Assembly: GCA_964522265.1 (NCBI GenBank)
Contig: CAZFVS010000012.1
Coordinates: forward strand, 3,501 to 17,118
Direction of reading: 5' to 3'
DNA from: an uncultured Gammaproteobacteria bacterium
GTDB taxonomy: Bacteria > Patescibacteriota > Microgenomatia > Daviesbacterales > UBA10151
DNA length: 13,618 nt
Shown: positions 1,868 to 8,895 of the stretch, piece after piece
How the letters are laid out: each line of letters opens with the position of its first letter
How positions within the stretch are numbered: position 1 is the first letter of the stretch
Made by a program: the position numbers and the translations under genes
The notes under the pieces: generated by a model
The model's input: the letters and a program-made list of their open reading frames with translations, nothing else
Told to the model about the DNA's origin: nothing
Databases searched by the model: none

Positions 1868-3082
1868 GTGAAAAAGAGACTGTGTCAATACTGTTACCCA
1901 TCAAGACGAAAAAATCACCTGAGCTTGCATGTTGAATATTACCTGGAGAAAATTCCCAGGATTAATCTTGGGTTGCAGGTTTTTGATAATTTGGTTTTGA
2001 ATGTACTCTCTTTCCTGAAAATCTTAAATTTCTCTGAGACAATAGATGAAACTTTATTTCACAACCGCAGCCTGATATTTTGGCATGAGGCAAAAAAGAG
2101 GAATCTTAAACTGGCTGCCCTGAAATTTTTAGGAAGAACAATTCAGGAGTTTCGGTTGGATTATGAGGGGAGGAAGTATTATTTTGAAGGCACACCTTTA
2201 AATATTTTTCCCAGCCCAAAATTCTTGGATAACAAAATCAAAGTTAAAAAATTTTTACAAAAAAAAGGTATACCGGTAGCTTCAGGTGAACTGTTTACCG
2301 ACTGCAAAAAAGCTTTAGAATTTGCAAAAAAGATTGGACTCCCGGTAGTAATTAAACCAAATACAGGATCTTTAAGCCATCATGTTATTTGTCCTGTAGA
2401 CTCTTTTCCGGCTCTTTCTAAGGCATTTAAGATTGTGAAAAGTTATAGACCGGATTTTATTGTTGAGAAATATACAGCAGGAAATTTATACAGGATCAGT
2501 GTTATAGGTAAAAAATATGTTTTTGTCTGTAAAAAAGACCGGGCTAATATTTTGGGGAATGGCTACGCCAATATAGACCAGCTTATCCAAACCAAAAATG
2601 GAGATATAAACCGCGGTGAAACGAGGCAACTGAATACTACCTTGCACAAGATTCCGCAGGATAATGTACTCCTTAAAAATCTTAAATCTCAAGGATTAAC
2701 TCTGGGGTCCATCCCTCCTAAGGATAAGAAAATCTATCTGCAGGATAAATATATCTTGTCAACAGGTTGTGATGTGGTGGGTTGTACCGGGGTGATAAAT
2801 CCGGCAAATAAAAAACTTTTCTTAAAAATTGCCGGACTGTTTAATACAGATATCCTGGGTATCGACTTTATTTGTCAGGATATAAGAAGAAACTACCTCA
2901 GCCAAACGAGTGTGGTTTTAGAAACTAATAGCCTGCCGTATATTGATATGCACATGTTTCCGTCTGAAGGTAAGCCAGATGATGTAGCAAAAATTAGCTG
3001 GGATTTTATACTCGGAAAACTGGATAAGCAAAAAAATAAAAAATTTTGTACTATTAATAAGTACCGAAAAATCGATGCCTAA
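1868..3082 (+). CDS. Stand-alone ATP-grasp ligase resembling the cyanophycin synthetase N+G domains, with no Mur-ligase domain
   Basis: Motifs seen by eye: DNKIKVKKFLQKKGIPVASG, KKIGLPVVIKPNTGSLSHHV, DFIVEKYTAGNLYRISVIG, RANILGNGYANIDQLIQTKNGDINRG, ILSTGCDVVGCTGVINPANKK, DILGIDFI and VLETNSLP. There is no in-frame ATG until about residue 360, so the start must be non-ATG. GTG at 1868 directly abuts the rpsR TGA, but the exact start is uncertain. Confidence 0.8.
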   Translation: MKKRLCQYCYPSRRKNHLSLHVEYYLEKIPRINLGLQVFDNLVLNVLSFLKILNFSETIDETLFHNRSLIFWHEAKKRNLKLAALKFLGRTIQEFRLDYEGRKYYFEGTPLNIFPSPKFLDNKIKVKKFLQKKGIPVASGELFTDCKKALEFAKKIGLPVVIKPNTGSLSHHVICPVDSFPALSKAFKIVKSYRPDFIVEKYTAGNLYRISVIGKKYVFVCKKDRANILGNGYANIDQLIQTKNGDINRGETRQLNTTLHKIPQDNVLLKNLKSQGLTLGSIPPKDKKIYLQDKYILSTGCDVVGCTGVINPANKKLFLKIAGLFNTDILGIDFICQDIRRNYLSQTSVVLETNSLPYIDMHMFPSEGKPDDVAKISWDFILGKLDKQKNKKFCTINKYRKIDA

Positions 3083-7197: not shown

Positions 7198-7977
7198 TTA
7201 AAATTTAACTATTAAAATCCGGTTCTTCCGGCTTAAATCTTTTTTAATTTCGATTTCTGAATTGGGAAAATATCTTTCTGCTTCTGCTGTTGCTAAATCA
7301 CCTTGATTCTCGTCTATTTCACAAATAAGATATTTTATACCTCCACATCGGAGGTGCCAGCTCAGTTGTGAGAATAATTTTCTGTAAAGCGCAAATCCGT
7401 CTTCACCGCCATCCAGGGCAATTTTTGGTTCCCATTCAGTTACCATCGGATCAATATGCATAAGACTGGTTGTTGGGATGTAAGGGAGATTGGCGACAAT
7501 TACATCAGGGGCTTTTTTAAAATTTGGCAGTAGATCTGACTCTAAAAAAATGATCTGCTTTTCGACATGGTGGAATTTGGCATTTTTTTGAGCAATTTCC
7601 AGAGCTTTTTGGGAAACATCAGTAGCGATGATTTTAGCGTTTGGCAGATTCTTGGTAATTGCTATGGCAATACAGCCAGAGCCTGTGCCAAGGTCAAGGA
7701 TGGTTAGGGATTGCTTCGCTGCGCTCGCAATGGCGCCTGCACTGAGCGTAGTCGAAGTGTCATTGCGAGGAGTCTTTGACGACGAAGCAATCTCTTTTTC
7801 TGCCCTCAATACCTCATCTACCAAAAGTTCTGTTTCAGGACGGGGGATTAATACATCCGGAGTCAGGTAAAATCTAAGTTTGTAAAACTCTGTCCAACCT
7901 CGCTGGTATTGTTTAGGAGGATCAGATTTCTTCTGGATTCTTTGGATCTCTGATTTTAAAGTAGCACCTTTTTTCAT
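7198..7977 (-). CDS. prmC: Release-factor glutamine N5-methyltransferase PrmC/HemK, with a short N-terminus and a 28-aa in-frame insert
   Basis: VLIPRPETELLVDEVL, SAM motif ILDLGTGSGCIAIAI, and catalytic motif IVANLPYIP (NLPY instead of NPPY). It lies immediately downstream of prfA. I prefer ATG at 7977 over the TTG at 7980 used by the track. Confidence 0.88.
   Translation of the reverse strand: MKKGATLKSEIQRIQKKSDPPKQYQRGWTEFYKLRFYLTPDVLIPRPETELLVDEVLRAEKEIASSSKTPRNDTSTTLSAGAIASAAKQSLTILDLGTGSGCIAIAITKNLPNAKIIATDVSQKALEIAQKNAKFHHVEKQIIFLESDLLPNFKKAPDVIVANLPYIPTTSLMHIDPMVTEWEPKIALDGGEDGFALYRKLFSQLSWHLRCGGIKYLICEIDENQGDLATAEAERYFPNSEIEIKKDLSRKNRILIVKF
7709..7792. repeat. 84-bp GC-rich nested palindromic element embedded in frame in prmC (REP/MITE-like)
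   Basis: The outer arms GATTGCTTCG (7709-7718) and CGAAGCAATC (7783-7792) are perfect reverse complements. So are the inner arms CTCGCAATG (7724-7732) and CATTGCGAG (7761-7769). My hand count gives about 55% GC, against clearly AT-rich flanks. The length is exactly 28 codons. Confidence 0.7.
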
Positions 7978-7986
7978 CAAGAATGG

Positions 7987-8895
7987 TTATAATGTTGTTT
8001 GGAGAGCTTGAATTATAGGTTCTAGTTTACCTTCTAAAATATCCTCCAAATTATGCCAGGATTTGCCAACTCTGTGATCTGTGACTCTGTTTTGGGGGAA
8101 ATTGTAGGTTCTGATCTTTTCATTTCTTTCCCCTGTACCCACCATAACTGATCTGGCTCCTGAGATTTTTTGCATTTTTTGTGACTGTTCCATCTCCCAA
8201 AGTTTAGCCCTCAAAAGTGCCATAGCGTTTTCTCTATTTTGCAGCTGGCTTCTTTCAGTTTGGGCTGTTACCACAATCCCTGATGGTTTGTGTTTAACCC
8301 TGACAGCAGTTGATACTTTGTTGACATTTTGCCCGCCGGCGCCTCCGGATCTGAATGCTTCAAATTCTATATCAGCAGGATTGATGTAAACTTCAGTTTC
8401 TGGTACATCCGGCAGTACTGCAACGGTTGCAGTTGAGGTATGAATCCTTCCTGAAGATTCTGTTTTTGGTACTCTTTGGACCCGATGCACCCCTGCTTCG
8501 AATCTTAGATCAGTATAAGCATTCTTGCCTTTGATTTGCAAAACAACCTGTTTAATCTGCCCGATTCCTCCTTCAGATCTGTCCAGTTCTTCAACACTCC
8601 AGCCTCTTTTTTCTGCAAACCTTAAATACATCCGCAGTAAATCTGACGCAAAAAGTCCTGCTTCGTCTCCTCCGGCAGCCGAACGGATTTCCAGGATTGC
8701 AACATTTGGATTGTTAGTTTCTATCTGGGAATCAGTTGGTGTGGCGGCTGAAGTCTGCAGCTCTTCCTTCTGTTTTTCCAGCTCTTCAATCTCAGTTTGG
8801 GCAAGCTGATAAAGCTCAGGATCTTCCAAGAGAGGGGTTACCTCAGCAATTCTGTTGTCTATCTCTTCCAGTTGTTGTTTTATATAATCGTCCAT
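7987..8895 (-). CDS. prfA: Peptide chain release factor 1 with a shortened N-terminal domain (302 aa)
   Basis: RF1-type tripeptide region [22 protein letters not shown] (P-x-T), GGQ motif [20 protein letters not shown], and [14 protein letters not shown]. An in-frame TAG 9 nt upstream of the ATG excludes a longer N-terminus. Confidence 0.93.

Follow-up and report, generated by a model that had tools for sequence, protein, structure and literature searches.

A putative inverted pair of REP-like hairpin repeats carried in frame by prmC of a Patescibacteria lineage

The 13,618-nt stretch of contig CAZFVS010000012.1 analyzed here (assembly GCA_964522265.1; this whole stretch is referred to as the window) contains prmC, the gene encoding the release-factor N5-glutamine methyltransferase, and within prmC lies a palindromic block of 84 nt. 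We consider it likely that this block is an inverted pair of hairpin units resembling repetitive extragenic palindromic (REP) sequences and that it is carried as a passenger loop in a permissive linker of PrmC. The element belongs to a known kind of repeat, the CGTC-tagged hairpins associated with the GIY-YIG nuclease Ssn, of which in-frame copies within genes are known. New are the host phylum, a repeat family that lies outside the published definitions and has a GIY-YIG partner clade of its own, and the PrmC linker as a recurrent insertion site. A preliminary description had proposed an element of the REP or miniature inverted-repeat transposable element (MITE) type; the dispersed hairpin repeat was borne out, but the block comprises two units rather than one MITE bounded by terminal inverted repeats. 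The host gene and the parts of the element are as follows.

7198–7980, minus strand: prmC, release-factor N5-glutamine methyltransferase, host gene of the insert (TIGR03534, fold matches, database protein P0001 100% identical)
7706–7795, no strand assigned: whole inserted element, two inverted hairpin-repeat units plus spacer (inverted repeats, fold z-scores, empty-site orthologue L328)
7706–7735, minus strand (mRNA-sense): unit A, with tag CGCC, arm ATTGCGAG, tip CGCAG, arm CGAAGCAAT and tail CCCT
7736–7757, no strand assigned: 22-nt spacer between the inward-facing tags, encoding part of TSTTLSAG
7758–7795, plus strand (prmC template strand): unit B, with intact tag TGTC, arm ATTGCGAG, arm CGAAGCAAT and tail CTCT

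Two inverted hairpin units lie in frame within prmC

The four half-sites of the palindrome were found where the preliminary description had placed them (GATTGCTTCG at 7709–7718, CGAAGCAATC at 7783–7792, CTCGCAATG at 7724–7732, and CATTGCGAG at 7761–7769). On the plus strand, GATTGCTTCG pairs with CGAAGCAATC as the outer arms, and CTCGCAATG pairs with CATTGCGAG nested within them; each half-site is unique to this locus within the 13.6-kb window. The outer arms can be extended to 13 nt at 92% complementarity (7706–7718 and 7783–7795). As had been noted, the 84-nt block is GC-rich, with 56% GC compared with 38.9% in the remainder of prmC and 40.2% in the window. It is also in frame, since the minus-strand open reading frame (ORF) at 7198–7980 reads ...ETELLVDEVLRAEKE-IASSSKTPRNDTSTTLSAGAIASAAKQS-LTILDLGTGSG..., which sets the insert peptide IASSSKTPRNDTSTTLSAGAIASAAKQS between the ETELLVDEVL helix and the ILDLGTGSG motif, the position claimed for it. 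The 28 codons of the insert span 7708–7791, a trivial one-base offset from the palindrome. Direct reading of the opposite strand likewise gave the expected DCFAALAMA...SLRGVFDDEAIS. Relative to a minimal orthologue, prmC has gained 87 nt (29 codons).

The strong mRNA hairpin that had been suggested was recovered when we folded 101 nt of the mRNA strand (−34.6 kcal/mol, z = −3.85, equaled by 0 of 200 shuffles). Folded as DNA, the block gave z-scores of −3.27 and −3.05 for the two strands. The fold of the whole block is far beyond chance. An Rfam scan of 7600–7900 with E-values up to 10 returned two chance matches only and no known RNA family.

We also considered an intron-like or otherwise excised element and dropped it: nothing supported removal, and the frame is intact in every in-gene copy.

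The units belong to a widely dispersed repeat family

Units of the family are ~24–45 nt long and can be written as YGT-CATTGCGAG-tip-CGAAGCAATC-C/T, that is, a 5′ tag YGTC, ATTGCGAG, a variable and self-paired tip, CGAAGCAAT, and a C-rich tail. The structure of a unit consists of a 5-bp basal stem (ATTGC/GCAAT), a conserved GAG/CGAA internal loop, and a tip of 5–26 nt. The commonest tip in the family is CGNAG, and the tip of unit A (CGCAG, a GNA-type loop closed by a G-C pair) is the second commonest; the tip of unit B is GA-GTC-TTT-GAC-GA. In unit A the tag CGCC has C in place of the canonical T, one substitution away.

Among the matches listed, a sample of 359 units, the 5′ flank carries G in 354/359 and T in 351/359; part of this sample was chosen with GT in the search pattern, and the viral part, chosen without GT, gives the same flank picture. 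On the 3′ side, the tail that follows AATC opens with C in 203 of the 359 units and with T in 148, and its second base is A in 163. Among the 137 distinct tips in the matches listed, 52% can form at least three Watson-Crick pairs, compared with 4% of shuffles, and 34 distinct tip stems reach at least 4 bp. The tips therefore covary across copies, which favors a hairpin. When neighboring units were paired (n = 46), the tags faced outward in 37 pairs, with a spacer of ~23 nt, and inward as in the window in 3.

The preliminary description had predicted a widely dispersed repeat, and the split pattern CATTGCGAG-N5-25-CGAAGCAATC indeed matched at least 120 viral contigs and at least 120 species-representative genomes. 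Exact arms were present in at least 181 units across at least 120 viral contigs, and the genomes with matches represent most bacterial phyla. Among the matches listed, the family occurs in Alphaproteobacteria including Rickettsiales (Bradyrhizobium, Sphingomonas, Rhodospirillales, and Rickettsiales), Gamma- and Deltaproteobacteria, Chloroflexi, Bacteroidota (Pedobacter and Chryseobacterium), Planctomycetota, Cyanobacteria (Microcoleus), Melainabacteria, Firmicutes (Sporomusa), Helicobacter rodentium, Zixibacteria, Latescibacterota, Omnitrophota, and Patescibacteria. Copies of the arms in unrelated genomes number in the hundreds and lie mostly outside genes.

The peptides that the preliminary description named from hypothetical proteins of uncultured bacteria (..ARND.., ..SLAMT.., and ..DEAIS..) proved to be reading frames of this repeat family. 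A literature search with peptides of the family (LRFARNDK and DCFASLAMT among them) and with CATTGCGAG returned nothing relevant. Repeats of this kind inflate and diversify proteins derived from metagenomes and create spurious "hypothetical proteins"; recognizing them would improve annotation and alignments.

Further copies, sought in related DNA, were found in other genes of sister Daviesbacteria. At locus L122, the gene encoding YchF (18131–19330, minus strand) contains an in-frame pair of the family that encodes ~33 residues (TSLRDHEVAKQS...EIATGSLSPRNDG). At the same locus, an ATP-grasp-like gene of 380 residues draws its C-terminal codons (..CHCEKRAQRVT) and its stop codon from a single unit (15115–15150, minus strand). 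A Patescibacteria membrane protein (L161) has a 35-residue C-terminal tail that comes from a unit pair, and a second pair nearby is intergenic. Two side observations concern the L122 genes: YchF has a second short repeat-like stretch (PSTNSGQAP) elsewhere in the protein, and the window orthologue of the ATP-grasp-like gene (1868–3082) ends differently.

The PrmC linker is a probable permissive hot spot for repeats

We measured the linker from the PETELLVDE helix to GTGSG in 119 PrmC homologues. It has 13 residues in 30 of them and is longer in 89, reaching at least 25 residues in 55. The 28 residues inserted in the window are specific to its lineage: only one of the 119 relatives (P0004) has a homologous doublet, which is likewise palindromic, and the linker is minimal in 30. 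By identity ranking, the PrmC proteins nearest to that of the window do not include P0004, and the ranking is compatible both with orthologous and with independent inserts in the window and at locus L121. An empty-site orthologue (L328) has a linker of 39 nt, compared with 126 nt in the window.

At least six repeat families fill the linker in PrmC homologues. The family of the window supplies the extra residues of 12 proteins, frequently as one unit alone (for example, VIARSLAAKQS), and repeats resembling CGTC-1 or the Neisseria repeat NTS are present in 6 (DSRFRGND and CHSRAGGNP). Other families yield IPKQVRNDK, GSDP...GPTL, SQMADS...SAIS, and THNS, and the linker at L449 holds a different mini-palindrome family. 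In ~41 kb of DNA from L122 and L123, only two matches to the Ssn-related motif (SRM) were found, both in the PrmC linker; 0.14 matches were expected from the four sequences shuffled. The L326 linker contains a canonical single unit and that of the related L325 is empty, at 72.6% nucleotide identity. This pair, like that of the window and L328, is too diverged to give exact element ends or a target-site duplication.

A published case appears to fall in the same linker. Rickettsia conorii RC1314, a protein of 524 residues listed as a tRNA-G-N7-methyltransferase, carries a CGTC-1 unit (CHSRESGNP) at residues 109–117 (PMC3733652 supplement). Its length and the 524-position NF002421 profile suggest that RC1314 is a PrmC/TrmB fusion, and by the coordinates of this profile, rather than by alignment, the unit appears to lie in the PrmC linker.

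The PrmC linker is thus a permissive hot spot, colonized repeatedly and independently by several families. Because unrelated families share one linker, a filter for permissive sites accounts for the hot spot more readily than target specificity.

Three observations concern this and other sites in PrmC. In the L328 linker (GAAGTCATCAAG), the conserved residues E-V-I are encoded by GAA GTC ATC, which contains the tag sequence GTCAT and may be a coincidence. PrmC relatives have two more hypervariable insertion sites (alignment columns ~200–270 and ~327–390), located before PDIIVANLPY and after YRKLFxQ. Inserts at these sites resemble other repeat-derived peptides, such as ARNATHSVAGG in P0067 and PSPRPFGERARVRG in P0100.

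The closest counterpart of the window pair is at locus L121 (assembly GCA_964583055.1), which has a homologous pair at the same codon position and in the same frame of prmC. The units of the two loci are identical at 54 of 57 nt, with all three differences non-synonymous, compared with 64% identity in prmC outside the units and 70.5% in prfA. The tip GAGTCTT is rare and is confined to the window and L121 among the 359 units in the matches listed. In L121 the tags abut (..AATGAC|GTCTTT..), and the spacer of the window is met by a 24-nt alignment gap. The difference in length lies exactly between the tags, where a nuclease of the Ssn type would be expected to cut; one may speculate that cutting of this sort produced it. 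The identity of the units would be explained by recent independent insertion of members of a common subfamily, by gene conversion with other copies as donors, or by selection at the nucleotide level.

The insert is predicted to form a loop in PrmC

The host gene of the insert is identified as prmC. Its product scored 207.6 bits against the NCBIfam equivalog model TIGR03534 (cutoff 199.1), its best fold matches are the HemK/PrmC structures 1vq1, 1sg9, 1t43, and 2b3t, and it contains the GTGSG loop that binds S-adenosylmethionine (SAM), but its catalytic motif departs from the (N/D)PPY pattern, as described below. The identical database entry P0001 begins at the ATG at 7977.

Solved PrmC structures have 0–8 residues where the window PrmC has ~33. 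In the alignment to 4dzr, nothing separates residues 32 and 33 of the chain where the query has residues 68–91, and in that to 1sg9, chain residues 115 to 124 correspond to query residues 58 to 92. We modeled the window PrmC using AlphaFold2 with 120 homologues, which gave a mean predicted local distance difference test (pLDDT) score of 91.4. In this model, residues 63–66 lengthen the helix 47–66, residues 67–91 are coil, and the strand 92–96 follows; the mean pLDDT falls to 61 for residues 71–80 and 65 for residues 81–90. The insert is hence a low-confidence coil between the helix and strand β1 of an otherwise confident model, in agreement with the loop that had been proposed. Once translated, it makes a loop of ~28 residues that is probably disordered. 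In methyltransferases of the Rossmann type, the N-terminal end of β1 is opposite the SAM-binding GxGxG turn; from this topology, rather than from coordinates, the loop would point away from the active site. Most likely, the loop adds nothing to PrmC function.

Some further features of the protein may be recorded here. The catalytic motif is NLPY (P0001 residues 163–166) in 120 of 120 aligned homologues, whereas canonical HemK/PrmC has NPPY. The window PrmC begins at approximately position 33 of the 253-position TIGR03534 model and at position 57 of the HemK family model, which has 286 positions, so that the N-terminal helical domain appears from these alignments to be mostly missing in its lineage. 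In E. coli PrmC, this domain touches the release factor. The L328 PrmC (P0003, 10001–10777) has a PPxQYQxGWxEFY segment that is duplicated internally near the N terminus.

The repeat family flanks genes for GIY-YIG nucleases

A related string, GTCATTCCCGC, belongs to the NTS repeats treated by Chenal et al. 2025 (PMC11893778). The NTS of Neisseria is CGTCATTCCCGCGMAVGCGGGAATCYRG and contains dRS3, and a generalized motif, the SRM, has been defined from it and related repeats (PMC11893778). SsnA, a GIY-YIG protein of 94 residues, binds the hairpin solely in single-stranded form, and its cut falls a few nucleotides to the 5′ side; cutting is sensitive to the three bases preceding the palindrome, and binding to the C immediately following it (PMC11893778). 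The ssnA gene is flanked by NTS repeats in the manner of insertion-sequence ends (PMC11893778).

The same arrangement was found for the window family. At L181 (Planctomycetota), a unit in plus orientation, a gene for a 96-residue GIY-YIG protein (PF01541, E = 6e-18), and a unit in minus orientation follow one another; this associated protein matched no specific model in NCBIfam. PF01541 is a match at superfamily level, whereas SRM-associated proteins are characterized by the CDD family cd10448. We then examined 80 metagenomic loci that encode GIY-YIG proteins of 59–73% identity and were picked by protein similarity alone. A unit lies within 150 nt upstream of the gene in 67/76 loci and downstream in 62/79, and 51 loci have units on both sides. 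The prevailing order is a plus unit ahead of the start codon and a minus unit just past the stop codon. Unit density is ~6 per kb near the GIY-YIG gene compared with 0.42 per kb farther away, and most units, the window pair included, are far from any such gene.

Among loci with the canonical NTS pattern, we found three GIY-YIG ORFs, each adjoining an NTS. In one of them (L423), a plus NTS, the GIY-YIG gene, and a minus NTS are arranged in that order, and the protein is 43% identical to that of L181 (E = 5e-25). Because units of the window family flank GIY-YIG genes and the protein is this similar to an NTS-flanked one, the family is, as judged by sequence comparison, the cognate flanking repeat of nucleases that form a sister clade to the Ssn enzymes already published.

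Two observations on individual loci may be added. Low-GC GIY-YIG loci have MsrAB, phosphoenolpyruvate carboxykinase (PEPCK), and Pcm as neighbors, which is uninformative on a Patescibacteria origin. At L262 (1259–2243), the GIY-YIG gene is within a long array of alternating plus and minus units, with spacings of ~18–25 nt and at least 12 units in 1 kb.

How the pair may have arisen and persisted

The likely partner enzyme, a GIY-YIG nuclease that in the NTS case binds the single-stranded hairpin and cuts just 5′ of the tag, would spread or maintain the repeats. In the window, a unit pair would have come to sit in the PrmC linker that joins the helix following PRPETE to strand β1 of the methyltransferase domain. 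The insert would survive because its length is divisible by three, the frame used has no stop, and the site tolerates extra residues; it would then be translated into a probably disordered loop, a passenger in PrmC. Mobilization by the nuclease, like any role of the hairpin in mRNA or DNA, is something we infer.

Several results weigh against the reading of the block as a passenger hairpin pair spread in this way. Folded singly as DNA, the units were no better than shuffles (z = +1.05 and +0.37). Their 5-bp stem, internal loop, and variable tip differ from the published CGTC-tagged families, and the SRM string (HGTCWYN(0-2)YYVSBRHN(0-5)WNVSBRGN(0-2)RNCYNB), which NTS matches, has no match in either window unit or in the canonical unit of the family. 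The inward-facing tags represent a minority orientation (3/46) and are unlike an element cut outside its tags. The near-identity of the units to those of L121, set against 64% identity in prmC, is unlike the neutral decay of an old passive insert. Unit-bearing loci totaling 2.04 Mb contained only 3 GIY-YIG ORFs, and a hidden Markov model scan of the window and ~65 kb of Daviesbacteria DNA, with L328 left out, detected no GIY-YIG gene. Finally, transposition of such repeats by Ssn is so far a hypothesis raised by the authors who described the system (PMC11893778).

These points bear first on what moves the repeats. A different mobilizer, such as a RAYT (REP-associated tyrosine transposase) or other IS200-type tyrosine transposase or host replication and repair, may be at work, with the nuclease only targeting the repeats or hitchhiking between them; we regard this as possible, if rather unlikely. 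Ssn has been shown to cut and not to join (PMC11893778), the orientation of the window tags is unlike simple excision, and the 2013 survey of CGTC-tagged REPs found no dedicated transposase and suggested that transposases of many kinds might act on them (PMC3733652). The same survey found no association with tyrosine transposases, however, and units are associated with GIY-YIG genes tightly and in an oriented manner at the 67/76 and 62/79 loci described above, a flanking layout that NTS shares.

In another reading, Ssn-type GIY-YIG nucleases could be the missing mobilizers of CGTC REPs, the short coding palindromes of Rickettsia included, and in gene-dense, reduced genomes such as those of Patescibacteria they would reseed a few permissive loops of essential genes, with the units maintained at the nucleotide level. 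We give this extended proposal a small chance. If it is true, reseeding together with nucleotide-level upkeep, for example as sites for a single-strand nuclease governing recombination across core operons, would explain why the units are 95% identical while the gene is 64% identical.

A narrower proposal, that the pair is kept for a role in nucleic acid, has a slim chance of being correct. The pair could serve as an Ssn-type single-strand nuclease site in the prfA-prmC operon that limits recombination or transformation there, or as an mRNA hairpin tuning translation or stability. The similarity of the window and L121 units in the midst of diverged genes, their shared tip, and the strong predicted mRNA hairpin would fit such a role, and NTS and Ssn modulate transformation in Neisseria (PMC11893778). 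Against it, the PrmC proteins most closely related to that of the window show inserts of other kinds or no insert at all, which means that the site can do without any particular element. In addition, the tag of unit A lacks the canonical T, the arms in L121 are mutated at two positions, most of the high identity falls on family-consensus positions, recent independent insertion or gene conversion gives the same picture, and the nuclease gene was missing from the DNA scanned.

The remaining two explanations are very improbable. An ordinary lineage-specific loop under protein-level selection, with incidental palindromy, would agree with the variable length of the linker across PrmC and with a stop-free, in-frame insert, but is effectively refuted by the copy counts, as the same arms recur hundreds of times in unrelated genomes and mostly outside genes; the GC content (56% versus 39%), the fold z-score, and the unrelated repeat families at the same spot in orthologues also argue against it. 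An assembly or chimera artifact is equally hard to credit: the contig, 17,118 bp long, is metagenomic and repeats may mislead assemblers, but in the independent L121 assembly the homologous pair occupies an identical codon position and frame, the reading frame is intact, and many independent assemblies contain similar in-frame units.

Genomic context of prmC

Directly upstream of prmC lies prfA.

7987–8895, minus strand: prfA (release factor 1), with PCRF and RF-1 domains

The order prfA-prmC is conserved at the Daviesbacteria loci L121, L122, L123, and L328, and the nearest relatives of the window locus are annotated as Candidatus Daviesbacteria. Next to these genes, the window encodes a ribosomal protein L31 (8905–9231, minus strand) of 108 residues, of which the Pfam domain covers residues 1–63 only. 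Its C-terminal extension is rich in lysine and glutamate, and L31 is equally long in L122, L123, and L328.

Comparison with known repeat systems

REPINs and GTAG-tagged REPs are mobilized by RAYT tyrosine transposases. The passenger pair in prmC resembles a REPIN in that two inverted short hairpins are able to form one long hairpin, and in consisting of non-autonomous copies of units that border a single-copy enzyme gene. It differs in its tag (YGTC and not GTAG) and in the flanked gene, which encodes a GIY-YIG rather than a Y1 protein (RAYT genes were not searched for). Furthermore, the sequence of the window family is common to many phyla and is not species-specific.

The window family also resembles NTS and the SRM. 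It has the layout GTCAT(T)-hairpin-(A)ATC(C), in which GTC precedes the palindrome and a C immediately follows it, and both repeat types flank a single-domain GIY-YIG gene of ~95 residues as inverted ends. Binding of the single-stranded unit and cutting 5′ of the tag are properties shown for NTS-type repeats. Copies within genes and in frame, and the candidate phyla radiation, are not discussed in PMC11893778.

Rickettsia palindromic elements (RPEs) are palindromes that lie in frame in housekeeping genes and are tolerated by the encoded proteins (Ogata et al. 2000, 2002; summarized in PMC10969869), and the classical RPE-1 is ~150 bp long and specific to Rickettsia. The window palindrome likewise keeps the frame of a housekeeping gene, and the PrmC fold accommodates it. 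It differs in its host, a lineage of free-living or episymbiotic Patescibacteria, and in its repeat family. The peptides of RPE-4 and RPE-6 (VIPWLDHGI and SFPRKRES; supplement of PMC3733652) are unlike those of the window family, a comparison of peptides and not of RPE consensus sequences. The analogy with Rickettsia drawn in the preliminary description nevertheless holds, and the relationship is closer than an analogy, since RPE-4 and RPE-6 are in the superfamily of CGTC-tagged REPs whose layout the insert has (PMC3733652). Protein-coding palindromes, once called unique to Rickettsia, are extended by the present insert to the candidate phyla radiation.

The CGTC-tagged REPs comprise four families, CGTC-1 to CGTC-4 (Di Nocera, De Gregorio & Rocco 2013, PMC3733652), of which CGTC-1 is Neisseria dRS3 and R. 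conorii RPE-6, and CGTC-4 is RPE-4 (PMC3733652). Their tag is an unpaired 5′ CGTC, with TGTC or CCTC allowed, and the four families have a stem of 8–9 bp, a loop of 4–5 nt, and a 3′ tail with the consensus CCA (PMC3733652). Intragenic single and dimeric copies that encode 20–30 residues have already been catalogued (PMC3733652). The tag of unit B (TGTC) falls within this definition and that of unit A (CGCC) is one substitution off; the stem starts with A-T pairs (ATTGC...GCAAT) and the tails are short (CTC and CCC). The window family thus shares with CGTC REPs the tag, the A-T base of the stem, a C-rich tail, frequent inverted dimers, a wide spread, and in-frame intragenic copies. ATTGCGAG and the peptides AKQS, LAMT, and PRND are absent from the text and supplement of PMC3733652 (Figure 2 aside), and Patescibacteria are outside the five phyla listed there. 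Because its stem and loop are unlike those of CGTC-1 to CGTC-4, the window family would be a further family and none of the four. It was missed by the published definitions of both CGTC REPs and the SRM, yet it also flanks an Ssn-like GIY-YIG gene, which bears on a question dating from 2013, namely what moves the CGTC REPs.

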